From positions 83,411 to 147,410 of the IMG/VR virus record IMGVR_UViG_3300011116_000922: DNA of 64,000 nt. The stretch is one strand, 5' to 3'. The stretch's first letter is position 1. Each line of letters begins with the position of its first letter. Position numbers and translations under genes: made by a program. The DNA comes from a virus. The notes beneath the pieces were generated by a model that saw only the letters and a list, made by a program, of their open reading frames with translations, ran no database searches and was not told the origin of the DNA. Positions 10,415 through 58,219 of the stretch are shown piece by piece.

Positions 10415-10597
10415 TTAGGTTTTGGGAAGTCTACGGCGGCGAATATTTGTTTTAGTGAGTTTGTTCTTGGCAGGGACGGGAGGAAAGTCACTTCCAAGCC
10501 CTGCGATTTTCTGATTGCCAACAGTGTTGGTGGGTGCGCTTGTGGGCAAACCACCGTCTTGTTCCATGAACGCAGCGAACCGCTTTAGTTTGCCCAT
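10415..10597 (-). CDS. small T4-like virion protein
   Basis: KRFAAFME N-terminus, APTNTVG..IAGLG motif; RBS AAGGAG. Confidence 0.6.
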   Translation of the reverse strand: MGKLKRFAAFMEQDGGLPTSAPTNTVGNQKIAGLGSDFPPVPAKNKLTKTNIRRRRLPKT

Positions 10598-11008: not shown

Positions 11009-11194
11009 TCAGCGTTCCCGTTGCGCGTTCTTTTTCTTGAATTTGTTTTGCTTTTGCTTGGGAGTCAAATCAGTATCTGTAATTTGCGTTCCGGGAATGG
11101 GATCCTGCAATTGCGATCCTTGACCAATGAAAATGCCTTCCGACACTGATTGGTCGTAATTACTTTTGCGAAAATATTCGCAGAAGCCCTTCAT
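11009..11194 (-). CDS. small putative head protein
   Basis: MKGFCEYF N-terminus, TGATG coupling to upstream gene. Confidence 0.55.
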   Translation of the reverse strand: MKGFCEYFRKSNYDQSVSEGIFIGQGSQLQDPIPGTQITDTDLTPKQKQNKFKKKNAQRER

Positions 11195-13353
11195 CACCAA
11201 CGCATTCCGTGCTTGTCAAGCATACGCTTGATGGACTTTTGCTTTCCGATTTCGGTTCTTGCGCCTGCGTGTGGATCAGCCTTTGGCGCGGGCTTCTTTG
11301 CCTTGGCAGCGGCTTCTTCCTTGACCGCAGCGATGGGACGAGCCGCACCAATCTTCTTGCCCCCCTCCACCTTTTGGGTCAGGATGCTCTTCTTGGGCTT
11401 GCTGCGAACCGCGTCACGGTTTGCCATGAGTTTGTCCAAGCGGGGAGTCCACGCCTTGAACTTCTTGCCTTCCTCCACAGTCTCTTCCTTCACGGTCTTC
11501 TTTTTGGCACGAAGCAGGGCAAAGTCCTGTGCGTCCAGTTTCTTGTTCTTGTTGACATCCAGTTTCTTTTGACCGCCAACAAGTTCTTCCTGTACACCCA
11601 TAGCCCGCTTGATGCCCTTCACGGCATTGGCTTGCTGCTTGCCTGTCAGAAGATTGCGGTATCTATCAAGTCCAGTAGTCATGCGTTGCAGTTGTGAACC
11701 GCGCTTGGCAACATATGCGTCCTTTGTTGCCTTGCTCAACTCGTCAATCTGCTCTGCTTCTTCCTTGACAGACTTCTTGGCTTTGGAAACGCGGTACAGG
11801 GTATCGCCTTCGCCGTGCTGAACGCTTACCTTCTTGCCGCTTGCACGAATGGCATTCAAGTCGGCTTTGGTCTTCTTGAGAGACTTCCACTCTTCCTTCA
11901 CGATCTTGTGGTGAGGAACGGTGATGCTGCTGTACTCGCCAACATCAACCACATAGCCGCCACCGTGCTGCGCTGCCTTGCTGCTGCCACCGTTGTCGTG
12001 GCGCACGATCTTGCCCTTCACCATCTTGCCCTTGTGGGGAACCTTGACGGTATCTCCCACTTTGTGCATTTCCTCAATTGCCTCAATCTCTTCCTTCACT
12101 TCAGCGCGACTGCCACGCTTCACCAGTTTGCCACCGCGACCGTAGGTGCGGGGCGAATCATATTCCTTGCGATCTTGTGCCAACAGAGCATTCACCTTTT
12201 TTTCAGTCTTATCAAGACGCTTTTCTGCTGCTTTTGCCTTCTTGTAAGAAGGGGAATTCATTTTGGTGGTGTAAGCGCGATCAGCACGGTCGTCTTGCTT
12301 GGCAATCTTGCGCTCCATTTCTTTCTGACGGGAAGCGGTCTGTGCCATCTCGTCCAGTTCTGCTTCTTCCTTTACAGGCTTCGTGGCAGGCTTGCCCATG
12401 CCCGGACGAATGGTTGCCAACTGATCCTTGGTCAACTTCTTCTTGGCTTCGTCCAGTTCGGTTTCTTCCTTCTGCATCTTCTTGTTGTGCAGTTTCCAAG
12501 CGGTAGCATACATGACGCTCTTGCCACGCTTGCCGTACTGCTTGGTGAACGAAGCCTTGGTCTTCTTGGAGCCTGTCATCTTCTCCATGTCGGGAGGCGA
12601 CACTTCATCCAACTGCTCGGTTTCTTCGTACATGGAAGGCTTTTCGCTCTTGCTCTTCTTCTTTTCAGCCTTCTTCTCTTCTTCGCTGTCGTGGCTGTAC
12701 ACACCCATCTTCTTGTCTTCGTCCACCTGCTCTACTTCTTCTGCCACAACAGGAGCAGCGGGAGCGAGTTTCGCGCTCACCACATACAGCGAATCGGGAT
12801 TCAGTTCCACATCAATGTGGAGATTGAGTTCGGTGTAGCCACCTGTTGGGTTAGCCTTGCCGTCAAAGCGAATCTGTCCGGTCAGCGCATCGTAACCGTC
12901 AACGCGACCAAACTGCTTGACAGTGATGTCATACGAGCCAACGCCTTGCAGGAGCATTCCCGGTCGCCAATCAAAGTCCAGTTGCACAACATTCAGGCGA
13001 ACCTTCATCTTGAGCAGGGCTTCGTTGGGATCAAGGTAGGTGGCACGGGAAATGGTGGACAGCATGGCATTCACGCCGTTGAGCGCACCCGCAGAGTGAA
13101 TGTGGTGCAGACCTGCGCCGTCCTTGTGAGCGGAGCGGTTGCCGTATCCGGTAAGAACTTCCGAGTACTCGCTCTCGTTGAGGGTGCTGCGGAACGCCTT
13201 GAACGACTTGTTTTCGTGTTGCATATGTTTTGCCTTTGAAATTTCAATTGCAGCGAGTTGCTTGGCTGCTTTTTCCTTGGAAGGATGAGTTCCCAATACT
13301 TTGGTTCCGCTCTTGTCGGTGACTACGAATTTGTTGCCGCGCTTCTGTATCAT
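11194..13353 (-). CDS. large modular internal head protein with repeated EE-x-E-x-x-DE sites
   Basis: Basic modules separated by VKEE/EQ(I/L/V)DE; EF-hand-like LDVNKNKKLDAQDF. Confidence 0.7.
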   Translation of the reverse strand: MIQKRGNKFVVTDKSGTKVLGTHPSKEKAAKQLAAIEISKAKHMQHENKSFKAFRSTLNESEYSEVLTGYGNRSAHKDGAGLHHIHSAGALNGVNAMLSTISRATYLDPNEALLKMKVRLNVVQLDFDWRPGMLLQGVGSYDITVKQFGRVDGYDALTGQIRFDGKANPTGGYTELNLHIDVELNPDSLYVVSAKLAPAAPVVAEEVEQVDEDKKMGVYSHDSEEEKKAEKKKSKSEKPSMYEETEQLDEVSPPDMEKMTGSKKTKASFTKQYGKRGKSVMYATAWKLHNKKMQKEETELDEAKKKLTKDQLATIRPGMGKPATKPVKEEAELDEMAQTASRQKEMERKIAKQDDRADRAYTTKMNSPSYKKAKAAEKRLDKTEKKVNALLAQDRKEYDSPRTYGRGGKLVKRGSRAEVKEEIEAIEEMHKVGDTVKVPHKGKMVKGKIVRHDNGGSSKAAQHGGGYVVDVGEYSSITVPHHKIVKEEWKSLKKTKADLNAIRASGKKVSVQHGEGDTLYRVSKAKKSVKEEAEQIDELSKATKDAYVAKRGSQLQRMTTGLDRYRNLLTGKQQANAVKGIKRAMGVQEELVGGQKKLDVNKNKKLDAQDFALLRAKKKTVKEETVEEGKKFKAWTPRLDKLMANRDAVRSKPKKSILTQKVEGGKKIGAARPIAAVKEEAAAKAKKPAPKADPHAGARTEIGKQKSIKRMLDKHGMRW

Positions 13354-13356
13354 GGT

Positions 13357-14370
13357 TTAGTCCGATGTGGTTTCAGAACGATAGTCTGCATCGGATGCTC
13401 TCTTGCTGCCACTGCCAGACTTCTTGCGCCGATCTGCTGCCCACGACATCTTGCCGCTCTTGGTGTCCTGACGAGCCAGTGGATTGGTGGAGCCACGCGC
13501 AGGAGGAACAGGCTTCTTGATTTCCGCAGCGTGTGCTGCGTAATCGGCTTTGGCTTTCTTTAGTTTGGCTTGAGCCGGGGAACCTTCCCACGCTTCTTCA
13601 ATATCCGAGCGCATTTGGAAGAACGACTTGCCTTCGCTCACACTCTTCCATCCGCCGCCCTTGGAGTTGTACCACTTGACTGCCCATCCGTTGGCATAAG
13701 CCGAAGGGTACACATCAAACTTGCTCTTGGCAGCAGCCTTGGCTTGCGACCACAGGCTTGGATTGGTGGGCTTGTTGGCTTCAAGAATTTCTTGAGCGGT
13801 TTCGTCAAGTCCAACCAGTGCAATGCTTTCAGCGCAGGCATAGTCAAAAGACTCTTCGATGTTTGCGGCATCACCCATCGTGCGCTTGAATGCGTTGAAC
13901 AGGGTAGGGTTGCCTGTGATCTTCTTGACCATTGAATCCAACAGGTCAATCATCATTTCGCGGTACACCTTGCCCACAGCCATCTTTTTCATGTTGCTCT
14001 TGGACGAGAAAGCCTTACGAGCAGCAGTCACCTTTTCCTTGTCAACCAATCCACTGCGGAACAGCACATTGGCTCGGCTGGTTTCAACGCTCTCACCAAT
14101 CTTCTGTGTGCTGCCTGCGTACATATCCGCATCGTCTTTGATGCCCTTTTCGTGGCTCAAGGTGGCACGGACAGCGTTGTACACGGTGCGATTGTTCAGG
14201 ATTGTGTCAACCACATCCACTAGGAGTTCCTGCATCACGGTGCGGTACGCGGGACTCTTGGCGTATCGCTCGGGGTCTTGCATCATGGTGATGACGCGGC
14301 GCATATTGTTTTTCGACACTAGACCCAAGCGGAGCAGTGTCTGTAGTTTGGACTTGATAGCAGTATCCAT
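13357..14370 (-). CDS. putative internal head protein (DUF5872-like module)
   Basis: PTNPSLWSQAKAAAKSKFDVYPSAYANGWAVKWY..KGGGW. Confidence 0.65.
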   Translation of the reverse strand: MDTAIKSKLQTLLRLGLVSKNNMRRVITMMQDPERYAKSPAYRTVMQELLVDVVDTILNNRTVYNAVRATLSHEKGIKDDADMYAGSTQKIGESVETSRANVLFRSGLVDKEKVTAARKAFSSKSNMKKMAVGKVYREMMIDLLDSMVKKITGNPTLFNAFKRTMGDAANIEESFDYACAESIALVGLDETAQEILEANKPTNPSLWSQAKAAAKSKFDVYPSAYANGWAVKWYNSKGGGWKSVSEGKSFFQMRSDIEEAWEGSPAQAKLKKAKADYAAHAAEIKKPVPPARGSTNPLARQDTKSGKMSWAADRRKKSGSGSKRASDADYRSETTSD

Positions 14371-14426
14371 GCGGTTGATTCCTTTAAGAAGGCTCTTTTC
14401 TTTATTTAGACCGTGAAATATTGCCG

Positions 14427-15710
14427 TCAGGTCATGCGAACAGGACCGTAAACTGTCCTGCCGTTGTTGATTCGATAGATTGCGGTCTTGCCGTTTTTCA
14501 GGGTCACATAGATTTCTTCACCGTACCGGATAGCCGATACCGCGTCATTTGCAAATATTTGATACGGTTGGCTGCATCGACCAATATAAAAATACACTCT
14601 TCCGCCCTTGACTGCCACCCATGTGTTTTCGGCATTGTTTTGCGGGGTGCGTGGGCACGATGCGTCTTCACCCAAAGACTTGTGGCTTACCACCACTGGC
14701 TTGTTGCCCTTGCCGCTCTTGGAGGCTTTGGATTCGGCTCTGCGCTTTTGGGACACAGCAGCCTTGCGTTCCTTGGGAGTCATCTCGCCAACGGTTTCGG
14801 GGGTCTTGCCCACCTTGTGCAGCGGACGGCACTTGGGGTACGCGCCGCCTTCGCTTGCGCTTTTGCGACCACACGGCGGATACTCTCCGGTCTTGGGGTC
14901 TTTCTTGCCGCCAATGTTTACCCACTTCTGCTTGAACCAATCGCCCAAGTCTTCGTCAATCTTGCACGGCGGCGTGGGGAACTGGGTGTTGTGCTTGGAG
15001 AATCCTCCCGTTTGACCGGGGGTGGGAGGTCTGCGCTTTTTCTTGTCGCTTTCAAGAATGTTCTTGGCAGCGGCGGTATACAATTCGCTGAAGTCCATTT
15101 CTTCCTTCATGCTGCCGCGCATTCCGCGCTTGATGTCATCAAACAGCCGCTTGGTGTCGTCCTTCTTTACTTCGCGGGGCATTCCACTTGCAAATGCCTT
15201 CATATCGTTTTGAGCAACGGCTTCGCGCATCTTGCTTGCGCTCATGCCTCTCACGCCCGATGCATTGGCATCGCGCTTTCCTGCCATGATGAAATCGTAC
15301 TTTTTGAGTTTGAGCCGTTTCTTTGGATCAGGATGCTTCATCAATTTCTTGATTACGCTGTCATCGTAATCCTCGCTGCGGTCTTCTCCCCCCACAAACA
15401 CAACATGATCGTAGCCCTGATCTGCCAAATAGTAAATCAAGTCAAACGGTGTGCGGATGGTGTCCGCATTCAGGAAATTAACTCCCGGAAAAAGGCGTTT
15501 CAACCAATAGTATTTACGAGATGGCGACAGTGGATTCTTTTTGGGATCCTGACTGCGACTGAAACCAATCGCGTGTTCGGCTCCCATCTTTCTCGCTGTG
15601 TCAACCACCTTGTCGAACAAGAGTTGGTGCCCTGAAGTTGGTGGCTGAAAACGACCGAAAGCAACTACGATAGTTTTGCTTCGTCGTGGATCTTTTAAAG
15701 ATTTAGCCAC
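14427..15710 (-). CDS. cytidyltransferase-like protein with C-terminal modules
   Basis: FGRFQPPTSGH, VGGEDR, GMSASKMR; then EDLGDWF..KWV...PCGR...PKCRP. Confidence 0.85.
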   Translation of the reverse strand: MAKSLKDPRRSKTIVVAFGRFQPPTSGHQLLFDKVVDTARKMGAEHAIGFSRSQDPKKNPLSPSRKYYWLKRLFPGVNFLNADTIRTPFDLIYYLADQGYDHVVFVGGEDRSEDYDDSVIKKLMKHPDPKKRLKLKKYDFIMAGKRDANASGVRGMSASKMREAVAQNDMKAFASGMPREVKKDDTKRLFDDIKRGMRGSMKEEMDFSELYTAAAKNILESDKKKRRPPTPGQTGGFSKHNTQFPTPPCKIDEDLGDWFKQKWVNIGGKKDPKTGEYPPCGRKSASEGGAYPKCRPLHKVGKTPETVGEMTPKERKAAVSQKRRAESKASKSGKGNKPVVVSHKSLGEDASCPRTPQNNAENTWVAVKGGRVYFYIGRCSQPYQIFANDAVSAIRYGEEIYVTLKNGKTAIYRINNGRTVYGPVRMT

Positions 15711-15752
15711 TTTGGATCACCTCCCGCAATGCACTTCAAATGCACCAACTCT

Positions 15753-16970
15753 TTACTGTTTCCACGCCTTGGACAGCGTGAAATTTGCCTTTGAGAATTC
15801 GATGCGATCAACCAATTTGACTGCATCGTTACTCATACGATCTATTGCAACGAATCCTTCGGGAACCGTTGCCACATACTTGTCGCCCTTCTGCACAAAA
15901 GTACCAAACTCCGTGGTCAAGGCAGACAGTTTTGCTAGTACATGCTTCTTCAGCATGGCTACACGATTATGTAGGGCAAACAACCGATTGATTTGGTTGC
16001 GGTTGTTGCGGATGTAATCCAGTGTAGGCGTGGGAGTTTTAGCGGGAACTTTTGATTTGCGCGCTTTGCGCTTTGCGTCAATCTTTGCAGAGATGAACGC
16101 AATAAGTTCGTTGGTGTCTCCCAACTCCCGTCCTGCACGGATGATTCCGTTAAAGTAAGTCTTGATTTCTGCTACCAGTGCGGTGTTCTTGGCAACCGCA
16201 TTCATGGCAGACTTTAGTGCAATTCCGTCTTTGATGATTCCATCAATTTGTGAATTGATGTGGGCAATATCCGTGGCACTAAACAAGCCATTACCCTTGG
16301 AGAAACGGTAGGTGGCATTGTCGAACCACACCTTGCGGCTCTTTGCCAATCCTGAAAGGTCGGGATTGAACTGGACAACTTTCAGGTCAGCAATGCTCTT
16401 GCCACCGTATTCCGTGTGGAACACAATTCCAATATCCGCAGCAGTGATTCGCGCACCCAAATCGGACTTGGGATCAACAGCGTACTTGATGGTGTTGGGT
16501 TGGAAAGTAATGTACCGCTTGCCGTCAATGGTTTCACGCTTGAGCGAATCCTTGTCGAACAGCAGATCGCCTTGCAGCACGGTGCTGATCCGCAAGGACT
16601 TGAAATACTTGAGAGCCAGTTTGAGTTTGGCATTCAAGCCTTCTGCCGGATGGTTGCGGTCAATGTCGGCTTCGGTGTAGTTCACCTTGGGTGTCACATT
16701 GAACACGCTCTTGGTGCCCACGAAGAACTTGCCGTTGTTTGGATCGGTTCCCACGATGATTGCGGGTGCGCCGTCCCACTTCACGGAAATATCATACGGC
16801 ACGGTGTCGTTGCCGTGCAGCGACTGCACCACACCGCGCAGGGAATTCATGGACTTGGAAAAACCCACAAACCCGTGATTGAATATTTCGTCCTCCAAAT
16901 GCTCCAAGTGGACATTTTTGCCACCTGTGCTTTGCAGGGATTCCGCCAAGAAGGGAATAAATGAGTTCAT
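15753..16970 (-). CDS. conserved T4-like protein (DUF6267-like)
   Basis: KNVHLEHLED, SVKWDGAPA, QGDLLF, PEGFV, KLVDRIEFS; start MNSFIPFLAE. Confidence 0.8.
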   Translation of the reverse strand: MNSFIPFLAESLQSTGGKNVHLEHLEDEIFNHGFVGFSKSMNSLRGVVQSLHGNDTVPYDISVKWDGAPAIIVGTDPNNGKFFVGTKSVFNVTPKVNYTEADIDRNHPAEGLNAKLKLALKYFKSLRISTVLQGDLLFDKDSLKRETIDGKRYITFQPNTIKYAVDPKSDLGARITAADIGIVFHTEYGGKSIADLKVVQFNPDLSGLAKSRKVWFDNATYRFSKGNGLFSATDIAHINSQIDGIIKDGIALKSAMNAVAKNTALVAEIKTYFNGIIRAGRELGDTNELIAFISAKIDAKRKARKSKVPAKTPTPTLDYIRNNRNQINRLFALHNRVAMLKKHVLAKLSALTTEFGTFVQKGDKYVATVPEGFVAIDRMSNDAVKLVDRIEFSKANFTLSKAWKQ

Positions 16971-16987
16971 GGGTTTCACCCCATTAT

Positions 16988-17653
16988 TTAGACTACGGAA
17001 ACCTGTTCGGACTTCCAAAGTGCAATGGCATCAGCCAGTGGCTCCACCCAATCCATAGTCTTGGCTTCGAATACTTGACATTCGCCCGTGTTGCTTACAC
17101 CAATAATGATGGTGATATTGTCCACGCGCTGCCCTGTCAGGTCTTGCCACATGAGCGCATACGCTGCTCCCTGAGTAAAATAATCAGAGATAGCGTCTTC
17201 ACTTTTTGGATTTTTTGAAGTCTTGAAGTCCACCACAGATAGTACACCGTTGTACTCCGCAATACAATCTGTGCGCCCCGCCAATCCAACCTTTTTCGAC
17301 CACAGCGCAACTTCAATTGCGCGGATGTTGTCGATGCAGTCGATGTGCGGCTGCATGGTATTGAAAATATCCAATTCTTCCGTGCCCTTGGCTTCTTGCA
17401 GGGTGGTTTCGAATCGGTTTTGCAGGTAGTCTTCAATTATGGAGTGAACCTTCGTGCCGCGAGACAGGACCCTCTTGGATTCTTCGGGATTGTCGCGCCG
17501 CCACTTGGCAAAGAAAGCACGCTTTGCCCATCCGGTCACGGTGGTAACAGAAGGAAAAACACCATGAGGTGTTGCGTAACGCCTTGATCCGTTTTCTTCA
17601 ATTGTATTGATTTCACCCGTGATGTTCACGAACGCATGATGAAAAGTTTTCAT
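16988..17653 (-). CDS. PD-(D/E)XK exonuclease (Cas4-like fold)
   Basis: PSVTTV, RGTKVH, AGRTD, VVDFKTS, QGAAY. Confidence 0.88.
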   Translation of the reverse strand: MKTFHHAFVNITGEINTIEENGSRRYATPHGVFPSVTTVTGWAKRAFFAKWRRDNPEESKRVLSRGTKVHSIIEDYLQNRFETTLQEAKGTEELDIFNTMQPHIDCIDNIRAIEVALWSKKVGLAGRTDCIAEYNGVLSVVDFKTSKNPKSEDAISDYFTQGAAYALMWQDLTGQRVDNITIIIGVSNTGECQVFEAKTMDWVEPLADAIALWKSEQVSVV

Positions 17654-24420: not shown

Positions 24421-24900
24421 TCATTTCATCAGTTTAGCCGTGGTCACGGTGCGCTGATTTTCCACACTGGAAAAACGGTTTGTTACATTAGTTCCCACAA
24501 TCTTGTAGCCGAACTCCTTGCCGAATCGCTTCATCATGGCACTGTAGACAGCATCGCGCTTGCCTTCGCTTGTCTTTGACACCATGTCCAGTTCCTTCGG
24601 CAGTTCACCCCGTGCTTCCATGTGGTCTTTCAGGAACAGGCGCACTGCCTCCACCACCGTAGCCAGTATGCGATACGGCTTGCCTGCGTGTGTGAGGTCG
24701 TGTGAGCCGTCAAGCGTAAAGTTGATTTCCCATCCACTCACCTTGATCTTGCTGATGTCAATGTTCAGGTACTGACCGTTTTCGGTCTGTGCCTGATAGG
24801 TGACTTCAATAGTGGTGGGACCGTAACCAATCCGCTTCATTTCGCGCACAGGCAACGGACGGTCAAATACTTCAGTAAGGTAGGAGCGGAAGTCTATCAT
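24421..24900 (-). CDS. putative capsid-targeted internal protein
   Basis: MIDFRSYLTE; ILATVVEAV..F motif shared with next gene. Confidence 0.7.
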   Translation of the reverse strand: MIDFRSYLTEVFDRPLPVREMKRIGYGPTTIEVTYQAQTENGQYLNIDISKIKVSGWEINFTLDGSHDLTHAGKPYRILATVVEAVRLFLKDHMEARGELPKELDMVSKTSEGKRDAVYSAMMKRFGKEFGYKIVGTNVTNRFSSVENQRTVTTAKLMK

Positions 24901-25595
24901 TGCATATCCTTGAATGGATCGTGGGATTTGTCAAACCACACAATCGCGGGTGCTGCCATTTCTCCACGCCCAAACGCCAAGTCGTAAACCTTTCCACCTG
25001 CTGCGGTGGCGGCTTTACGAGCCAGTGCCTTGTAGATGCGACCACGCGCAGGATTTGCGTCTTTCTTTGTGCCAATCAAAACGCCTCGGGGTTTCACTTC
25101 ATCAACGAATTTCTTTGTAGCGTCCACTACCGTGCCAAGGATTGCTGCTGCTTCTCCTGCACCAAGCCAGTTCAGGTCTTCGTCTGATCCTATATCAAAC
25201 GAGTGCCAGTAGTATTGGCTGTAATCGTGGATTTTAGAACCAACAGGACGCGGACGGGGCGGCATACGGCGTAGTTCCGTGAGTTGGCGTTCAAAGCCCA
25301 ATTCCCAAATGTTTTTAGTGTCCAACAAATTATAGAACAGCGAAAACTCTTCGTATCCTTCAACCCAACCGCTGCTGATTTCCGTGAAGTCCACAGAATA
25401 GGTGTACACCGTTGGCTCAATCCCGTTTACATAGTTGGCTTCCACCCAATCGTCCAGTTGCTTTCCGAATCTCGGAACAGGATACAAGCGACCGCGCTTC
25501 TCCTGCACAATGAAAGTGTAGGTGTCGCGGGACATCCGTTCCAATTGGAACTTTTTGTCAAACAGTTCGGTCAGATATGAACGGAATGTGTTCAT
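24897..25595 (-). CDS. putative capsid-targeted internal protein
   Basis: MNTFRSYLTE; ILGTVVDAT..F motif. Confidence 0.7.
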   Translation of the reverse strand: MNTFRSYLTELFDKKFQLERMSRDTYTFIVQEKRGRLYPVPRFGKQLDDWVEANYVNGIEPTVYTYSVDFTEISSGWVEGYEEFSLFYNLLDTKNIWELGFERQLTELRRMPPRPRPVGSKIHDYSQYYWHSFDIGSDEDLNWLGAGEAAAILGTVVDATKKFVDEVKPRGVLIGTKKDANPARGRIYKALARKAATAAGGKVYDLAFGRGEMAAPAIVWFDKSHDPFKDMQ

Positions 25596-26332
25596 ACGGC
25601 TTTACGCTTCACCTTTCCGTGCAGTTGACGGGAGAAGGTTTCGGAGCGGTAGTCCACAGCCTTGTCGGAGTATGTGGTGTAGCCGCCCTTTACCCACGAA
25701 TCAGCGTAGGTCATCTGATTTCCGCCTGTCATCTGCGACAACTTCAAACCCGTGACTTCAACGGTGTCGCCCAAGCGAATGGGCGGCAAGCCTTCCTTGC
25801 GATCCGCTGTGCCAATGTAGCCCATGAGCATCCAGCCTTCATCAGTCTGAATGCGAACACGCCACCGCCACACGCTCATCTTTGCGTCATACGCTTTCTG
25901 ACCGGGAGTATCCACACGCGGACTATTACTCTTCCCTTCACGCTCTCCAATGCGGAAGCGCGTCATTCTGTATTTCTTTGTCTTCACGGGAACATCAAAC
26001 ACAGGAACCAACTGCACAATCTTGCCGCTGATGCTGAACGGCATCCGAAAGTACTCGGGCTTGGGCTTGGCTGTGTCGCCGTGTTCTGTGCCTTCGCGCA
26101 CTGCCTTGCCGAATGCGGCACTGGCATTGAACGGTTTGGACAGGTCAAGCACTTGCACACGGAATGAATGCCATCCGTCCTTGGCAGCGAGTGCCTTTAC
26201 GCGCTCCACATCCGCTTCGCTCTTGGCTTGGGTGTACAGAATCTTTTCGTGGATGCGATCACGCTTGCCGCGAGGCAGTCCCCACAGCACCCATTCCTTG
26301 GCTTCAGTGAGATAATTGCTAAACCCTTTCAT
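25592..26332 (-). CDS. putative capsid-targeted internal protein
   Basis: MKGFSNYLTE; ATGA coupling. Confidence 0.7.
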   Translation of the reverse strand: MKGFSNYLTEAKEWVLWGLPRGKRDRIHEKILYTQAKSEADVERVKALAAKDGWHSFRVQVLDLSKPFNASAAFGKAVREGTEHGDTAKPKPEYFRMPFSISGKIVQLVPVFDVPVKTKKYRMTRFRIGEREGKSNSPRVDTPGQKAYDAKMSVWRWRVRIQTDEGWMLMGYIGTADRKEGLPPIRLGDTVEVTGLKLSQMTGGNQMTYADSWVKGGYTTYSDKAVDYRSETFSRQLHGKVKRKAV

Positions 26333-26898
26333 ATCGCGCCCTCCACATCCATGTCTACCACTGTGTAGCCGGGGAACATACGCGCAAGGTTGTTTGCCAC
26401 GCGGTTCTTGCCCCGCTGAAGCGCACGATCACGCAGCAGATTATCGCCTGTAGACGCAGAGATGAGTGAAACGGTTTTGCGGAAACGGTCAACGCGACCT
26501 TGGTAATCAGGCATACCGTTCTTGTTGGCGGATCGTTCAGCCGCAACATTGTATTCAGGAATATCGTTGTGTATCACATTCGCGGTTTCGTGTGGAGGAA
26601 TTTCCCAGACAATGATTTTTCCACTGTCCCACCACCACAGCAGGGGCAAGTACTGGCGCAGAGTCTTTGCATCGCTTGTGGGCGGCAGTCCCCACTTCTC
26701 AAGCCAACGGGCATTGGGATTGTCGTGACCAGTGGAATCATATGCTGCGTACACCTTGCCGTCATAGGTGGTTTCGTCACGCAACCGCTTCAGCGTTTTC
26801 GCTGCGGTGGTTTTGTAGCCCCGTGGCTTTCGTGCGCCTGCCACGGCTTTTGTTGATGCGATCACTGCTTCGTGAAGATGTGCGCGGAATGACTTCAT
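26329..26898 (-). CDS. putative capsid-targeted internal protein
   Basis: MKSFRAHLHE. Confidence 0.65.
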   Translation of the reverse strand: MKSFRAHLHEAVIASTKAVAGARKPRGYKTTAAKTLKRLRDETTYDGKVYAAYDSTGHDNPNARWLEKWGLPPTSDAKTLRQYLPLLWWWDSGKIIVWEIPPHETANVIHNDIPEYNVAAERSANKNGMPDYQGRVDRFRKTVSLISASTGDNLLRDRALQRGKNRVANNLARMFPGYTVVDMDVEGAI

Positions 26899-26899
26899 T

Positions 26900-28069
26900 T
26901 TAGATCCAAGTGTAAGACATTTGAACTGGTTCAATTCCCAAGAACTCCATGAATGCAGAGAATCCTGCGCTCAAGAGTCCTGCAAAGAAATCAACGATTT
27001 TGCGGACAGCGGACACCAAGATGTCCCATCCGCGCCCAATTGCGGTTTTTGCTGCCGCGTACCAATCGCTTAAGCCTTCATTCAAGTGATTGCGGATTTC
27101 AGTGTATCGGGCTTCGTCAAGTGGCTTTCCGCCCGAGAAGTCGATTCGCGCAGCAATGCCGCGTGAGCCACCGCCGCTTGCGCTGCTCTTGCGACCACGA
27201 TCACGCAGCGAAAACTTGAAGTGCGGCAAAGTGTTGCGGATGAATTCATCTGCATTGGCAAACTTCACCGTGCCGTTGTCGAACCACTCAAGGAAATGCG
27301 AGGCAATAAAGTCGGGCTTGTTGAAGCGGCGTTCGCCTGTTGCGAATTCACGCAGCAGTGCAACACGGTTCTCGGGCTTGTTCATAAACTCGCTCATCTC
27401 AAGCGTGAGCCGTTCCTTGATGCCCAATACGCTCAGAAACTTGTTCATTTGCGCTATTTCGGCTTTGGTGGGCGTGACTGCTCCGCTCTTGAATCCGGTC
27501 ACGCGAGACAGCAGTGCATCGAATCCGTCTTCGCCGTACATTTTCTCGTACCGCTTGCGCGTAGCCTTGTACACTGCTTCATTGCCTGTTTCAAGAATGA
27601 TCTGCGAAATTGCCCGTGCAATGGGTGCGCCGCGACCACCATTAAACACTGCGTTAAGCACTGCGTATATTTCGTTGGTCTGTGCAGACGCGATTTGTGC
27701 GTTCACGCCGTACTTCACGGAGCAGCGGTACTTGTCACCCGTGGTGATGAACACCACATCGGTCTTGGGTTCGCCGCTCTTCACGCTCTTTCCTGTGCCG
27801 CCGCTTGTGTACGCAAGTGTGAGTGCTTCGCGTGGAGCCTTTCCTGCCATGCGGAAAGCCAATCGCGGCTTGCCGTCCATGTGTACCAACATACTGTTTA
27901 CACAGCCACGCGCAACGGCTTCTGCGGCTTTGCTTTGGTACTTCAGCGCAGCACCGCGATCCGCACCTTCGGATGAAGCGTCATTGAACGCTTTCACCAA
28001 GTCACCTTCGAATTTTGTGGTGTTGATTTTAGCCGTGGCTTCGGAAAGATATGAAACGAATCGCTTCAC
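26900..28069 (-). CDS. capsid-targeted protein with restriction-endonuclease-like motif
   Basis: GTG start (M)KRFVSYLSE; EPKTDVVF...CSVK. Confidence 0.6.
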   Translation of the reverse strand: MKRFVSYLSEATAKINTTKFEGDLVKAFNDASSEGADRGAALKYQSKAAEAVARGCVNSMLVHMDGKPRLAFRMAGKAPREALTLAYTSGGTGKSVKSGEPKTDVVFITTGDKYRCSVKYGVNAQIASAQTNEIYAVLNAVFNGGRGAPIARAISQIILETGNEAVYKATRKRYEKMYGEDGFDALLSRVTGFKSGAVTPTKAEIAQMNKFLSVLGIKERLTLEMSEFMNKPENRVALLREFATGERRFNKPDFIASHFLEWFDNGTVKFANADEFIRNTLPHFKFSLRDRGRKSSASGGGSRGIAARIDFSGGKPLDEARYTEIRNHLNEGLSDWYAAAKTAIGRGWDILVSAVRKIVDFFAGLLSAGFSAFMEFLGIEPVQMSYTWI

Positions 28070-28830
28070 GATATGGTTCTCCATTCTTTTGGATTGTACC
28101 GATTGAAATGCGATGATAATGGTTTCAGTCCAACGCGCTCCACCACGACCACCTCAAAGTTGCCACCGCTTTCGCTGATCTCGCGCAAGGCTGCACGAAT
28201 GGACTCTGCGTTGGTGCCTTCCAGTGACGGTGAGTTCTGTGGAGTTCCCGAGTACACTTTGAGCCACCCGCGCTGATACGCAAGCATCTGCACACTGTGC
28301 GACAAGTCAATGTCTTCCTTCAGGATTGCCTTCTTGATTTCTTCTGCCGTCCACGGATGCTCCGCACCGTCATTTCCGTAGCGCGGCAAGTTGTGTGTAT
28401 TGCGGCGATCCGCTTCTGCTTGCAGACCCTGTTCCAGTTCGGTATTTGAAATGCCGAACTTGGCAGGAGACTTCACGATTTGCGTGACATGGTAACCGTC
28501 TTTGGCATGGAGGAAGGTGAACCACTGCTTGGTGGGATGCCACCACCCCGCTCGTTGGGTATATCCCGTGCCGCCCCACGGAAACGGATCGCGCTGTGGT
28601 GCGGATTTTTGTGCGCTCTTTTTCCGTTGTGAGTTTGCAAATGCCTTTGCTGCCACCCGTGCCATCATTGCGCCGTACTTCTTTTGCTGCCTGCGGTCAA
28701 ACATGATGTCTGCACGGCTACGGGCACTGGCAACTTCCGGTGGCGTGTACGCATTGGGATTGTCTAAAATCTCAAGTCGCTCACCAATGGCAAGCCGTGC
28801 CTCTTTTAGAAATGCAAAAATGTCTTTCAT
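28066..28830 (-). CDS. putative capsid-targeted internal protein
   Basis: MKDIFAFLKE; upstream CTAAATA. Confidence 0.65.
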   Translation of the reverse strand: MKDIFAFLKEARLAIGERLEILDNPNAYTPPEVASARSRADIMFDRRQQKKYGAMMARVAAKAFANSQRKKSAQKSAPQRDPFPWGGTGYTQRAGWWHPTKQWFTFLHAKDGYHVTQIVKSPAKFGISNTELEQGLQAEADRRNTHNLPRYGNDGAEHPWTAEEIKKAILKEDIDLSHSVQMLAYQRGWLKVYSGTPQNSPSLEGTNAESIRAALREISESGGNFEVVVVERVGLKPLSSHFNRYNPKEWRTIS

Positions 28831-28867
28831 GTCCGCAGACCCCCTGTATCAAAGTATTTAGCCCCAT

Positions 28868-29788
28868 TCAACTCCACGGGTCACCGGAGAACTTGATGGT
28901 GGATGCCAGTTTTTCGGATTCAAACTTGGCACGCATTTTCAGGATCTTCTTGCCACCCGCGCTCACGCCAATGCTTTCATTGCCCACCTTCTCAAGAGTG
29001 ATGGGCTTGGACATGATGGCACTCAATTTTTCGTTTTGCAGGGGATCGTCCACCTTGGCAGTAATCTTTCCGGGCTTGTCGCCCATGCCTGTCACCTTGA
29101 CATACGGCGGATACAGGTCATTGGAAGCGTCCAACCAGTTGCTCAAGATGTAGTCCCGCAGTGCGGCTTGGCTCATGCTGTTCAGTTTTTGGTACATGGT
29201 GTCGCGCACCTTGTGCAGCACAACCGATCCCATTTCCTGTGTCTGTGCCTGAACCTTGGGGGACTTGCGGATGGCATCCTTGCGTGCTTTGGAGTTCTCG
29301 GGCAAGTGGAACTTGCGGACAGCGGTGTTTACTGCTTCGGTCAGTACCGTGCCCAAGTCAATCTTGAGTGCGGCTTCCACCGTGCCCACGCCCGGATTCT
29401 TGAAGCCAATGTCACCCGACCCCGATGTGGATTTGGCAGACAGCCCAAGGAATCCGTCTGTTGGGCCCGAAGTAAACTGGATCAGAATGTCCGTGGGGTT
29501 CTTGCGCGAATCCACTTCCCGTCCCACTGCCCGTGCCAGTACCCCCGGTCGCGCAGTCCACCACACCTTTTTCACCGTGCCTGAATACTTGTGCTTTTTT
29601 GCCCACTGGAGGAATTCCTCCACCATGCGTTCGGCGCGTTCCACCTGAATAGCCGTCCGCACCGCACCAATCACTTTGGACTTGCGGTTGAACTGGGCTT
29701 TGGCTTCGGGATCCCACCACTTCTCTCCCGCAAGCAAATATCCCACATAAATTTCGTTTACATGTGCAAGGTCTGTGTTTGCAAGCAT
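28868..29788 (-). CDS. restriction-endonuclease-like PD-(D/E)XK protein
   Basis: NE helix, NPTDILIQF...FLGLSAK, FKNPG; own CTAAATA promoter and GGAGG RBS. Confidence 0.6.
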   Translation of the reverse strand: MLANTDLAHVNEIYVGYLLAGEKWWDPEAKAQFNRKSKVIGAVRTAIQVERAERMVEEFLQWAKKHKYSGTVKKVWWTARPGVLARAVGREVDSRKNPTDILIQFTSGPTDGFLGLSAKSTSGSGDIGFKNPGVGTVEAALKIDLGTVLTEAVNTAVRKFHLPENSKARKDAIRKSPKVQAQTQEMGSVVLHKVRDTMYQKLNSMSQAALRDYILSNWLDASNDLYPPYVKVTGMGDKPGKITAKVDDPLQNEKLSAIMSKPITLEKVGNESIGVSAGGKKILKMRAKFESEKLASTIKFSGDPWS

Positions 29789-29878
29789 AAAGCCTCCCTC
29801 CCGGTATTTAGCACCAAAAGAAAAGCCCCCAGTGCGGGGGCTGATCGTTTGCCAAGGTGGACGGATGCATTAATCGTT

Positions 29879-30889
29879 TCAATACACGCCCCAACCGCGT
29901 AGTCGCTCTGCGTGGTAAGCGTCCCGCAACTTGGTTTCCGTGTTGCCCTTGGGTTTTCGCAGATTGCCTGCCGCTCCAACGGTCTTGCCCTTGTACCGTT
30001 TGGGGTCAATCTCCTTGCCGCCCTTGCCGTACAGTTTCTTGCTGCTCTTTTCACGCGCATTCTGATTGTCTAACTTTAGGTAATCACTGTCTATTTTTCG
30101 TATCCGCTTGGAGCCTTCGCCGTGCCCTGCTGCAAACGCCTTCTCCAAGGCACGGTCTTTCTTGATGTACGCCGCGTCCACCTTCTTGTTCATCTGTTTG
30201 GAACGCTCCGCGGTCTGTGCCATCTCATGCACCGTGCCTTCAGCCACTGGCGATTTGCCGTTTACAATTTGAGCAATTACATCGCCAATGTCAGTGCGGT
30301 TCTCGGGGGTACGAAAGGGAAATGGATCTGTGAATGGTTTCATGTGCGGTTCTCCTCTTGTCCAATTATATAGGCATTCACGGGATTCTCGGCTTGCGAC
30401 CACCGCTCCGCTCATGCACTGGTCACACGCTTCCGCAAAGGTTTTGCCCTTGCCGCTTAACCCGTTCTTGGCGGCTTGCAGCAGGTCTTCACCCCCCACG
30501 ATGCGCTCGTCCAATACCCCTTCGTCCACCGTGCTTCCCGCGCCCTTGGCACGGAGCAGACCACGAACAGTCGCCAGTTCTTCCGATGCCTTGCGGTCAC
30601 CCTTTAGCACTGCGGCTGCGTACTTTTTTTGCAGTTCACGCAACTGGGTAATGGACAACTTTTCCAATGCGGCACGGGAGTGGGATTCCTCCACCTTCTC
30701 CACCTTTTCGTACCGCTTGCCACTGGGCAGGGTAGACTTTTTTGTGGGAATGGGAGCAGAAGCCTTTTCTACTTTGGCGTAGCCCTTGTGTTTGGGCTGC
30801 TCACCACGGCTTGTGATCTCCGCAATGACTTCCCCAATGCTGCTGCGGGTTTCGGGATTACGGAAGGATGGATCTGTGAATGGTTTCAT
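29879..30889 (-). CDS. protein with duplicated MKPFTDP N-terminus and internal in-frame start at 30343
   Basis: Two MKPFTDP segments, each preceded by AGGAG. Confidence 0.7.
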   Translation of the reverse strand: MKPFTDPSFRNPETRSSIGEVIAEITSRGEQPKHKGYAKVEKASAPIPTKKSTLPSGKRYEKVEKVEESHSRAALEKLSITQLRELQKKYAAAVLKGDRKASEELATVRGLLRAKGAGSTVDEGVLDERIVGGEDLLQAAKNGLSGKGKTFAEACDQCMSGAVVASRESRECLYNWTRGEPHMKPFTDPFPFRTPENRTDIGDVIAQIVNGKSPVAEGTVHEMAQTAERSKQMNKKVDAAYIKKDRALEKAFAAGHGEGSKRIRKIDSDYLKLDNQNAREKSSKKLYGKGGKEIDPKRYKGKTVGAAGNLRKPKGNTETKLRDAYHAERLRGWGVY

Positions 30890-30915
30890 TGTTGGGTGTT
30901 CTCCTGTGGGAATAT

Positions 30916-31260
30916 TTAGCGTTCCGCGTTCCGCAGTGGGCGCATCCACTCCGCATAGCCTCGGGCTTCCAGTACTGCGTACAGCCTACACGCAAGTTCC
31001 GCCCCTACTGGATACGGATCCCCCCACTCGTTCTGTAGAGCGTAGTACTCTTCGGGAATGCTGTGGGTGCGGCGTTCGTCCCCACCAATACGAATATGAC
31101 CCCCTGTACCGCTTTCGTCCGAGTCCACCGTGTTTACAATAATGCAGTAGTGTAGAGTAGAGGACAGGGAATAGAAAGAGAACCTGTACCAATCACCACC
31201 ACGGTGTAGTAGGTGGGAGGAGGTGTGTGTGGAGGTGTGTGGGCGAAAATGCTGTGTCAT
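30916..31260 (-). CDS. hypothetical protein
   Basis: ORF fills gap; start uncertain. Confidence 0.4.
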   Translation of the reverse strand: MTQHFRPHTSTHTSSHLLHRGGDWYRFSFYSLSSTLHYCIIVNTVDSDESGTGGHIRIGGDERRTHSIPEEYYALQNEWGDPYPVGAELACRLYAVLEARGYAEWMRPLRNAER

Positions 31261-56946: not shown

Positions 56947-57390
56947 ATGAACGCGAAGCGCATTCAAAGATTGTTGGAAACGGCTTATCCGCTGTGCTTG
57001 AACATCAAGCGGCAGAAAAAGCACATTTCCTTCATTCTCCGTAAGGGCAGAATCGTTGCCGTTGGGCAGAATCGGTTCAAGACCCATCCGAAGGCAAAGG
57101 AAAAGGGATACATGTTCGAAGAAATGCACTCCGAATTGGATGCATTTTTGAAATTGGACGCTCCTGAACGCGATTTGGTGCTGTTCAATGTGCGATTTAA
57201 CAGTTTGGGCAAGATGCGGATGGCGCGACCGTGTGAACGGTGTATGCCGTGGTGCTATGGGGCCTTTTCGGAGATTTGGTACACCACCGATCAGGGTGTC
57301 ATGCTGCACGGCAACACTCTTTTTCCGCTAAATATAGTGAAACCCCGACAGGAGATCACTACCGATGAAGAAATTTTCTCAATATCTTGA
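56947..57390 (+). CDS. cytidine/adenosine deaminase-fold protein
   Basis: HSE and ARPCERC zinc motifs. Confidence 0.8.
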   Translation: MNAKRIQRLLETAYPLCLNIKRQKKHISFILRKGRIVAVGQNRFKTHPKAKEKGYMFEEMHSELDAFLKLDAPERDLVLFNVRFNSLGKMRMARPCERCMPWCYGAFSEIWYTTDQGVMLHGNTLFPLNIVKPRQEITTDEEIFSIS

Positions 57391-58219
57391 CCAAAAGGGT
57401 CTAAATGAATGGGTTGCACGGAAAGATGTGCAGGAAGTACCCCTCATTGAGTCCAAACTGTCCCGCGTGTTCCAGTATGTGGAAGACGATGAGAAGGACT
57501 TTGGCATTGTGTCTGCATTTCGTGGCGAAAATTCGCGTGAGCAGAACAAGAAACTCCACGAAGAACTAAAAAAGCGCATTCGTGACATGGGTTACGGCTA
57601 TATTGAACTCAAGGGTGGCTACCAAGAAGAAAGTGGTGTCGTTGAAGAGTTGAGTGTACTCATTCCCAACATCAAGAAGTCTGAAATTGTGCAGTTGGGA
57701 CGGCATTACGGTCAGCATTCCGTGATGTACAAGAACAACGAGGATTTCTACTATATCGGAACCAATGAATCTGCCGGAATAGGCAAGGTTCTCATGCGTT
57801 TCAAGAAGGGCGAAGGACAAAACAATCTTGAACTTGCCAAGCACAAGGTCGTACAGTTCTTTTCGCAGTTGCGTAAGGGCGCACACAAGGGCAAGAAGTT
57901 TGTATTCAATGTAAAGGACGAGCCGGAATCCACTGGTGGAGAAGAAAAGTCCGGCGAATCTGCTGCTGCGGCACACAAGCACAAGCCCGGTGATGTATGG
58001 AAGACCTCTAGTGGTCTGTTTGGCGGCATGGACAGCGAAGGCAACTACGAGTATTTCGAAGATCAGGAAGCCGCGCAGCGTTATGCCAAGAAGCATCGCA
58101 AGGGGTACAAGATCCAAGAACGGGAAGAGTGGAATTTTGCCAAGGCAGCGTACCTACGCCGTGGCGAAGACCCCAAGTGGATAACAATTTTTGAGGATTC
58201 TTCAGACGAACTCTCCTAA
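57365..58219 (+). CDS. putative capsid-targeted protein with inserted HKPGDVWKT module
   Basis: MKKFSQYL; VSAFRG...N...YGQHSV; CTAAATA upstream. Confidence 0.7.
   Translation: MKKFSQYLDQKGLNEWVARKDVQEVPLIESKLSRVFQYVEDDEKDFGIVSAFRGENSREQNKKLHEELKKRIRDMGYGYIELKGGYQEESGVVEELSVLIPNIKKSEIVQLGRHYGQHSVMYKNNEDFYYIGTNESAGIGKVLMRFKKGEGQNNLELAKHKVVQFFSQLRKGAHKGKKFVFNVKDEPESTGGEEKSGESAAAAHKHKPGDVWKTSSGLFGGMDSEGNYEYFEDQEAAQRYAKKHRKGYKIQEREEWNFAKAAYLRRGEDPKWITIFEDSSDELS

Follow-up and report, generated by a model that had tools for sequence, protein, structure and literature searches.

A stretch of viral DNA 64,000 nucleotides long (positions 83,411 to 147,410 of IMG/VR record IMGVR_UViG_3300011116_000922; hereafter the window) carries six tightly coupled genes, g1 to g6, whose products begin with a common ten-residue leader resembling the capsid-targeting sequence (CTS) of the T4 internal proteins (IPs). 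Capsid targeting is the best reading of this leader, and we interpret the locus, with considerable confidence, as a late operon encoding internal head proteins of the T4 type. According to this reading, each of the six products would be made with a ten-residue CTS, in which the aromatic or hydrophobic residues 4 and 7 would dock the product onto the scaffolding core during prohead building. A gp21-type serine protease would then cut after Glu10 in the sequence L-x-E, and the mature proteins, predicted to be 17–42 kDa in size and mostly basic, would remain in the head with the DNA and exit with it at infection. We infer packaging, cleavage and ejection from T4 genetics together with the virion proteomics of one cultured relative, the cyanophage S-CREM2. 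The mechanism is already known from T4; it is the cargo that is new. A first-pass annotation of the window had proposed both capsid targeting and cleavage of the leader, and this proposal is now supported by the presence of a matching protease and gp23 capsid protein, the positions conserved within the leader, the conservation of the leader among homologues, a CTAAATA box upstream of the operon, and the virion proteome of the relative.

A Common Leader on Six Coupled Genes

The six genes lie between positions 24421 and 28830 on the minus strand, where the first-pass annotation had located them (Table 1), and are tightly coupled, with ATGA overlaps at three junctions and gaps of 0 and 1 nt. The start of g4 was assigned to the ATG at 26898 and not to the upstream TTG at 26934, a homologous protein (P0084) beginning in the same way; that of g5 was assigned to the GTG at 28069, preceded at a distance of 9 nt by a GGAG, the homologues beginning MKxF. 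The common start pattern of the six genes is M-x-x-F-x-x-(Y/H/F)-L-x-E. We scanned the whole genome in six frames with the pattern ^M..[FYWILVM]..[FYWH][LIVM].E, considering every ATG, GTG or TTG with at least 60 open codons. Only 7 of the 4,701 candidate starts matched strictly, compared with ~1.7 predicted by the column composition, and seven matches were never reached in 500 column shuffles. The matches are g1 to g6, which are consecutive, and the gene that starts at 16970; all are plausible real gene starts, and all are on one strand. The same leader residues are encoded by differing codons across the six genes, and this variation at synonymous sites indicates selection on the peptide, not on the DNA.

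Behind the leader, the bodies were described in the first-pass annotation as mostly unrelated, and they are. BLASTP comparison of the leader-trimmed bodies found a match only between g1 and g2, and a weak one (29% identity over 77 aa, E 5e-4); when 24 further relatives were aligned with them, these two proteins proved to have a C-terminal block in common. It is conceivable that all six genes represent one duplicated family, with bodies that have diverged beyond recognition and a common start that reflects ancestry. The detectable paralogy of g1 and g2 would fit such a history, as would three tandem genes beginning MKDYWQLRE in related IMG/VR contigs (L003–L005). However, g5, with an endonuclease fold, and g3, with a small domain and an oligonucleotide/oligosaccharide-binding (OB) fold, have unrelated architectures, and the same leader occurs elsewhere on genes for DUF6267, cytidylyltransferase, kinase and S-adenosylmethionine (SAM) hydrolase proteins. 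We regard a single diverged family as extremely unlikely.

Leader, Protease and Capsid Protein Compared with T4

The window forms the final 64 kb of a virus record that is 147,410 bp long and complete, with terminal repeats. Pfam searches identified a Peptidase_S77/gp21-type prohead protease (PF03420, 139.9 bits, cut-off 27) and a gp23 capsid protein (PF07068, 448 bits, far over the cut-off), and the structural genes follow the T4 order of portal, small core protein (110 aa), protease, acidic scaffold (gp22) and capsid. Judged by these features, the phage is T4-like and its genome complete, with a protease of the gp21 type and gp23. The identity of its gp23 to that of any isolate does not exceed ~59%, and the top matches are cyanomyoviruses. 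Among isolates, a homologue of g7, which follows g6 on the upstream side, is found only in Synechococcus phage S-B68; both S-B68 and S-CREM2 have been put in "cluster C" of the T4-like cyanophages (PMC10665884).

The gp23 of this phage begins MAINNDLLTE, and the equivalent of its propeptide boundary reads ...MLVE/APGAANIIGGG (the slash marks the boundary). In T4, gp24 begins MAKINELLRE and gp23 reads ...FLTE/AEIGG at residue 65, which is the propeptide length stated in PMC9026906. Because the L-V-E/A boundary of this phage resembles the L-T-E/A of T4, its protease probably has the same L/I-x-E specificity.

In the T4 record, ipII and ipIII begin MKTYQEFIAE and ipI begins MKTFKEFTSTTTPVSTITE. 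The first ten residues of IPIII suffice for packaging, and within the T4 leader residues 4 and 7 mainly govern targeting, while residues 8 and 10 govern processing (PMC9026906). The conserved leader positions in our genes are 4, 7, 8 and 10, the same four as the experimental determinants of T4. We compared 39 distinct variants of the leader over their first 12 residues, representing 36 distinct decapeptides. F4 and E10 never vary among them, position 7 is occupied by Y, H or F, and position 8 by L or I. Every one of the six genes carries the targeting residues as well as the processing residues (L or I at 8, E at 10) in its N-terminal decapeptide.

The likeness to the T4 IPs comprises the ten-residue leader with an aromatic residue at 4 and 7, L or I at 8 and E at 10, and also the gp21-type protease, the basic products, the unrelated bodies and the variable gene content. 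Five of the six mature products have an isoelectric point (pI) of 9.4–10, T4 IPs are described as basic (PMC9026906), and variable CTS-marked IP loci are known for T-even phages (PMC3012670; PMC9026906). A longer leader variant, like that of T4 ipI, is found on the neighbouring gene g8 and on some g5 homologues. Unlike the T4 IPs, the proteins described here have larger bodies (17–42 kDa, compared with 8–20 kDa in T4) and are encoded in one coupled operon, whereas the T4 genes are scattered. The setting, a phage only ~59% identical to its nearest isolates in the capsid protein, also differs from that of the T-evens.

A more distant parallel is offered by phiKZ and SPN3US. Two accounts describe many unrelated head-internal proteins in these phages, with propeptides that are cut after Glu by a related prohead protease (PMC9026906; PMC5694885). 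The six products would resemble such inner-body proteins in being unrelated head-internal proteins with Glu-cleaved propeptides. The cleavage motif of phiKZ and SPN3US differs, being S/A/G-x-E, and these phages are not known to have a short CTS of the T4 type. Matches to the Pfam family phiKZ_IP occurred in 9 of 30 g5 homologues; they were sub-threshold (best E 0.017) and were not used as evidence.

Leader-Bearing Proteins in the Virion Proteome of S-CREM2

We applied the same strict pattern to ~167 of the 175 kb of S-CREM2 (OR473000), where it marks five annotated gene starts: gp6, a SAM hydrolase (MKDFDSFLEE), gp13 (MKDLHSFLTE), gp14, a kinase ((GTG)KRFDAFLTE), gp154, a cytidylyltransferase (MKNFSSFLTE), and the 55-aa gp175. 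The mass-spectrometry virion proteome of S-CREM2, in which 52 of ~220 open reading frames (ORFs) were detected, includes gp6, gp13, gp14 and gp154 (PMC10665884, Table 3). Four of the five leader genes are thus represented in the virion proteome, for which the simple binomial probability, given this rate of detection, is ~0.013. A packaged nuclease of the same phage, gp12, contains ...LRFASFMAE at residues 17–25, and the cytidyltransferase gene of cyanophage ACG-2014b begins MKKFSAFLNE. The S-CREM2 cytidylyltransferase is homologous (33% identity) to the gene adjoining gX, the DUF6267 gene of the window. Unlike the window operon, S-CREM2 has a different cargo set, and its leader genes are not in one array.

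The enzymes found in S-CREM2 virions were handled as a puzzle by the authors of that study, who considered them possible contaminants and mentioned no targeting sequence (PMC10665884); a set of 21 papers using the term "capsid targeting sequence" included none on cyanophages. The leaders would explain why four "non-structural" proteins occur in these virions, and more generally would provide a simple, testable explanation for the SAM hydrolase, kinases and cytidylyltransferases that recur in purified cyanophage virions. The S-CREM2 comparison supports a link between leader and virion for the wider lineage, though not directly for the six proteins of the window.

Conservation and Module Shuffling in Relatives

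A megablast search of the locus and tblastn searches of g5 and the protein encoded at 57365 found no match in 50,697 phage records. Related loci were not found with g5 alone as the query, but were found when the g5 family alignment was used. The leader is kept by many of the homologues identified. In g5, which has 33 metagenomic homologues, the strict leader is present at residue 1 in 14 and the core motif falls within the first 30 residues in 19; other homologues have longer leaders ending YLTE (for example, MNRFTSFIHTAYLTE), and a small number have truncated or divergent sequences. In g2, all 45 of the full-length homologues checked begin M..FRSYL[TA]ELFD and retain the strict leader.

The content of the array is more variable. 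In L003–L005, where the g5 homologue is 55% identical, nine consecutive co-directional genes carry leaders; these arrays contain homologues of g2 and of g6 (36–39% identity, beginning MKTLSELLTE), as well as several genes that have no counterpart in the window. The presence of nine-gene arrays with partly different bodies indicates that the array is stable in the lineage while its content changes. It also qualifies the suggestion in the first-pass annotation that the locus is expanded, which is accurate when six genes are compared with the three IPs of T4, but such a locus is unremarkable within this lineage. Individual modules have been exchanged as well: P0084, which bears a leader, consists of the whole of g4 (89% identity) fused to the C-terminal OB domain of g3, and P0088 and P0094 are g1-like modules fused to the same OB domain, with an HNH domain between the two parts in P0094. 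In L006, L008, L009 and L012, the g5 homologues adjoin DUF6267 genes.

These fusions, which demonstrate that cassette exchange happens, are also what might be expected if the shared N-terminus had nothing to do with the capsid and served instead as a translation or mRNA element, a recombination linker, or a membrane or degradation signal. Conserved leaders in T-even IP loci have reportedly been regarded as possible sites of cassette exchange, and translational coupling would constrain the 5' ends of the genes. However, an element acting through DNA or mRNA does not agree well with the retention of residues while codons differ, and no hydrophobic span is present in the leader. The positions that are conserved match the targeting and cleavage determinants of T4 in a phage that has the corresponding protease, and leader proteins are present in S-CREM2 virions. 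A function unrelated to the capsid is highly improbable on this evidence, and capsid targeting remains the reading that we prefer.

Predicted Functions of the Cargo

Pfam and PHROG scans gave no named family for any of the six bodies, and unnamed PHROGs for g1 and g5 only. The most informative result came from structure prediction. An AlphaFold2 (AF2) model of g5, built from a 30-sequence alignment (predicted local distance difference test, pLDDT, of 81), matched MspI with a Foldseek E of 4e-4 and a probability of 1.00. In VIA comparisons the model matched MspI (1sa3; Z 11.1, 201 aligned, root-mean-square deviation (rmsd) 4.6), HinP1I (1ynm; Z 10.7, 192 aligned, rmsd 3.5) and HhaI (6uke; Z 6.8), the next unrelated fold class being Holliday-junction resolvases (Z ≤ 5.5). 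All of 30 homologues, the most divergent at 34% identity, retain residues E21, D104, S117, K119 and E133. In the model, D104 lies just before strand 105–109, and S117-V-K119 lies inside strand 113–120. Residues ~14–311 superpose on the three enzymes, with D104 and S117-x-K119 placed like the SD-X11-EAK motif that HhaI carries in such an arrangement (PMC7026639). On the strength of the model, g5 is assigned an MspI/HinP1I-like PD-(D/E)xK endonuclease fold. Unlike MspI, HinP1I and HhaI, it has Ser at the usual middle acidic position, an extra C-terminal helical region and a capsid-targeting leader, and it is a phage gene. In MspI and HinP1I, the middle acidic residue is replaced by N and Q, and Cfr10I has S-x-K with a glutamate 14 residues downstream, a spacing like that of K119 and E133. 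At the sequence level, g5 and 30 family members had no restriction-endonuclease match in Pfam, even at E up to 1, and a profile search of PDB sequences with the g5 family returned only chance-level rows. Judged by the modeled fold and the placement of these residues, g5 probably functions as an Mg-dependent endonuclease like the monomeric enzymes MspI and HinP1I.

A precedent for an enzyme, rather than an inhibitor, that is loaded, trimmed and injected is T4 Alt, a packaged ADP-ribosyltransferase processed by gp21. The enzyme-like cargo here is, unlike Alt, an endonuclease fold; none of the six proteins showed an ADP-ribosyltransferase signature, and Pfam scans of the leader-array genes in relatives for Alt-like ADP-ribosyltransferases were empty.

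If g5 were a restriction-type endonuclease, loaded into the capsid and injected as a weapon, it would cleave the DNA of the host or of competitors immediately on injection, and the phage could be immune through loss of the target sites and not through methylation. A scan of g1 to g8 and the flanking genes, the part of the genome that it covered, found no methyltransferase domain beside g5. Several palindromes are strongly depleted in the whole genome compared with the maximal-order Markov expectation, including AGCT (0 observed, 408 expected), ACGT (6 and 475) and GGCC (44 and 413), as well as the six-base palindromes CTGCAG (0 and 56), CCATGG (0 and 52), TCATGA (0 and 43), TCGCGA (0 and 36) and AGATCT (0 and 34). 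The count of AGCT is also zero in relatives L003–L007, while T4 and distant loci show no such avoidance. However, comparison with relatives does not support a link between g5 and the missing AGCT and ACGT sites. In the distant loci that contain g5 homologues (L008–L012), AGCT is not avoided, and in the close relatives many palindromes are depleted together. Such a pattern would result from escape from host restriction, which is the ordinary explanation. The avoidance suggests that the DNA is unmodified and that the hosts are rich in type II restriction systems. An injected restriction weapon protected by its own lost sites therefore seems improbable.

The g3 protein is modular, with two domains that match separately among 230 matches. 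Residues 11–80 form a ~65-residue domain (EYVLWGLPKGETD...VE.VK..A..DGWH.FRV) that belongs to no Pfam family; it also occurs as a stand-alone protein (64–100 aa) and in proteins of up to 1,615 aa, in well over 100 sequence clusters. The AF2 model of the C-terminal domain (pLDDT 86) matched OB-fold nucleic-acid binders throughout the list of structural matches at modest scores (Z 7.6–6), with uS12 at E 3e-3. We base the OB-fold call on the uniformity of this list, and the module, as modeled, probably binds nucleic acid. The remaining bodies yielded little. No match to g6 was found in Pfam, PHROG, PDB or the ESM Atlas, whose own g6 model has a pLDDT of 0.45; g4 had no fold-giving match in Pfam or PHROG; profile searches of PDB sequences with the g2, g6 and g7 families returned chance-level rows only; and a search of the ESM Atlas with g2 returned only unnamed viral clusters. 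A lead connecting g2 to DUF6934 was below threshold (E 0.012) and was dropped. In the first-pass annotation, the delivered proteins were also proposed to have putative anti-defence or takeover roles. The two cargo proteins with assigned folds, g5 and g3, look from their models to be DNA-acting proteins and not inhibitors like IPI*, and the restriction-endonuclease fold and the shuffled OB module point to DNA-directed early functions.

Probable Late Expression, and Possible Roles Within the Virion

We counted 15 copies of the heptamer CTAAATA in the window, compared with 2.7 expected; it is found 12–40 nt upstream of g6, g7, g8, gX and the 57365 gene. Two genes elsewhere in the genome, those for the gp22 scaffold and the 110-aa core protein, are likewise preceded by the heptamer. 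It resembles the T4 late promoter, TATAAATA. The box at 28855–28861 is the probable promoter of the g6–g1 operon, and we infer from the distribution of the heptamer that g6 to g1 form one late transcription unit, co-expressed with the prohead core.

A promoter box in common with scaffold genes, together with the basic products, would also be expected if the proteins were packaged and cleaved to serve the virion itself, as core or scaffold accessories or in DNA condensation, charge neutralisation or DNA exit, in the manner of IPIII, gp67 and gp68. IPIII mutants of T4 have head-assembly defects (PMC9026906), and OB and nuclease folds can serve as mere DNA binders. Nevertheless, structural parts do not usually show the gene turnover and module shuffling seen among relatives, the catalytic-type residues of g5 do not vary in its homologues, and the leader-tagged virion proteins of S-CREM2 are enzymes. 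We consider a purely virion-directed role unlikely, and prefer to interpret the operon as encoding internal head proteins that would leave the head with the DNA.

Several observations weigh against this interpretation. The phage is uncultured, and the six proteins are known here from genes alone. The identification of CTAAATA as a late promoter rests only on analogy with the T4 sequence given above. The g2 product is not basic (pI 6.4). S-CREM2 has no homologue of any of the six cargo bodies, though the leader is common to both phages, and the authors of the S-CREM2 study allow that abundant proteins may co-purify with virions (PMC10665884). An active endonuclease beside the packaged genome needs explaining, whether by a lack of free Mg, a lack of target sites, or inactivity. 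Finally, no resemblance to a T4 internal protein is seen in any of the six bodies, and the mature parts have no homology to IPI, IPII or IPIII. Such homology is not a strict requirement, because the IP bodies of T-even phages are themselves unrelated to one another (PMC3012670).

If the interpretation is correct, T4-type CTS and gp21 loading would extend to a lineage far from the T-evens, the lake and river relatives of the cluster-C cyanomyoviruses, and the leader would offer an inexpensive means of cataloguing, from sequence, the set of proteins that uncultured T4-like phages inject. The mechanism is textbook knowledge, and the value of these findings lies in the cargo and in the link to proteomics, not in a new principle.

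Neighbouring and Other Leader-Like Genes

The coordinates of the operon, its neighbours and the other features considered are collected in Table 1.

Table 1. Features of the window, with positions counted from its first nucleotide.
Feature	Position	Strand	Description
61-aa ORF	11009–11194	minus	Begins MKGFCEYFRKSNYDQSVSE; length and layout as in the 19-residue leader of T4 ipI
719-aa Lys/Glu-rich protein	11194–13353	minus	Leader-like KSFKAFRSTLNE after a ~43-residue N-terminal segment
gX	15753–16970	minus	DUF6267 protein; strict leader MNSFIPFLAE; cytidylyltransferase-like gene follows
CTAAATA box of gX	16985–16991	minus	Precedes the DUF6267 gene
g1	24421–24900	minus	Leader MIDFRSYLTE and 149-aa basic body; last gene of the operon
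g2	24897–25595	minus	Leader MNTFRSYLTE and 222-aa body; g1 paralogue
g3	25592–26332	minus	Leader MKGFSNYLTE, ~65-aa widespread domain, C-terminal OB fold (residues 88–246, from model)
g4	26329–26898	minus	Leader MKSFRAHLHE and 179-aa basic orphan body
g5	26900–28069	minus	Leader (GTG)KRFVSYLSE, modeled MspI/HinP1I-like PD-(D/E)xK fold (residues ~14–311), C-terminal helical extension
g6	28066–28830	minus	Leader MKDIFAFLKE and 244-aa basic body (pI 9.7)
CTAAATA box of g6	28855–28861	minus	Late-promoter-like; 31 nt upstream of g6
g7	28868–29788	minus	306 aa, no leader; between g6 and g8
CTAAATA box of g7	29805–29811	minus	Precedes g7
Terminator-like hairpin and T run	~29816–29842		After g8
g8	29879–30889	minus	336 aa, basic; 24-residue ipI-like leader MKPFTDP...EVIAE
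CTAAATA box of g8	30913–30919	minus	Precedes g8
CTAAATA box of 57365 gene	57328–57334	plus	37 nt upstream
S-AdoMet-lyase-family gene	57365–58219	plus	PF23780, DUF3293; near-leader MKKFSQYLDQKGLNE

The g7 protein is strongly conserved, with 1,028 homologues, of which the best 120 are 53–96% identical. Its residues E12, D100, S117 and K119 are invariant, with numbering near that of D104, S117 and K119 in g5, and these residues suggest that g7 is possibly another nuclease-like protein. A paralogous relationship between g7 and g5 was considered on the basis of a common PTD...SxK motif, but was not supported by an hhalign comparison, which found no significant similarity (probability 1.5%).

Upstream of g7, the start of g8 at 30889 reads MKPFTDPSFRNPETRSSIGEVIAE, a leader site absent from the first-pass annotation. 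This gene comprises two tandem copies of a module in one frame, each beginning MKPFTDP...IG.VIA; the leader of the first copy ends in E, the cleavable type, and that of the second, at residue 183, ends in Q (...DVIAQ).

Of the similar leaders that the first-pass annotation had listed outside the operon, the one at 16970 stands as a strict match, while that at 57365 is reduced to a near-leader, that at 11194 is of the ipI-like kind, and the leader-like start at 10597 is weak. In the near-leader MKKFSQYLDQKGLNE, position 10 is Q and LNE occurs at positions 13–15. In S-CREM2, the SAM hydrolase is a virion protein with a perfect leader, and for this reason the 57365 protein is possibly packaged; the gene may be a candidate for further cargo, as a packaged anti-restriction enzyme.

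The DUF6267, cytidylyltransferase-like and DUF5872 genes form a block at 13357–16970 on the minus strand, which is widespread in cyanomyoviruses and also occurs in Pelagibacter phage HTVC008M. PHROG 455 merges the DUF6267 and cytidylyltransferase parts in one profile. The leader moves within this block, being located on the DUF6267 gene here and on the cytidyltransferase gene in ACG-2014b and S-CREM2.

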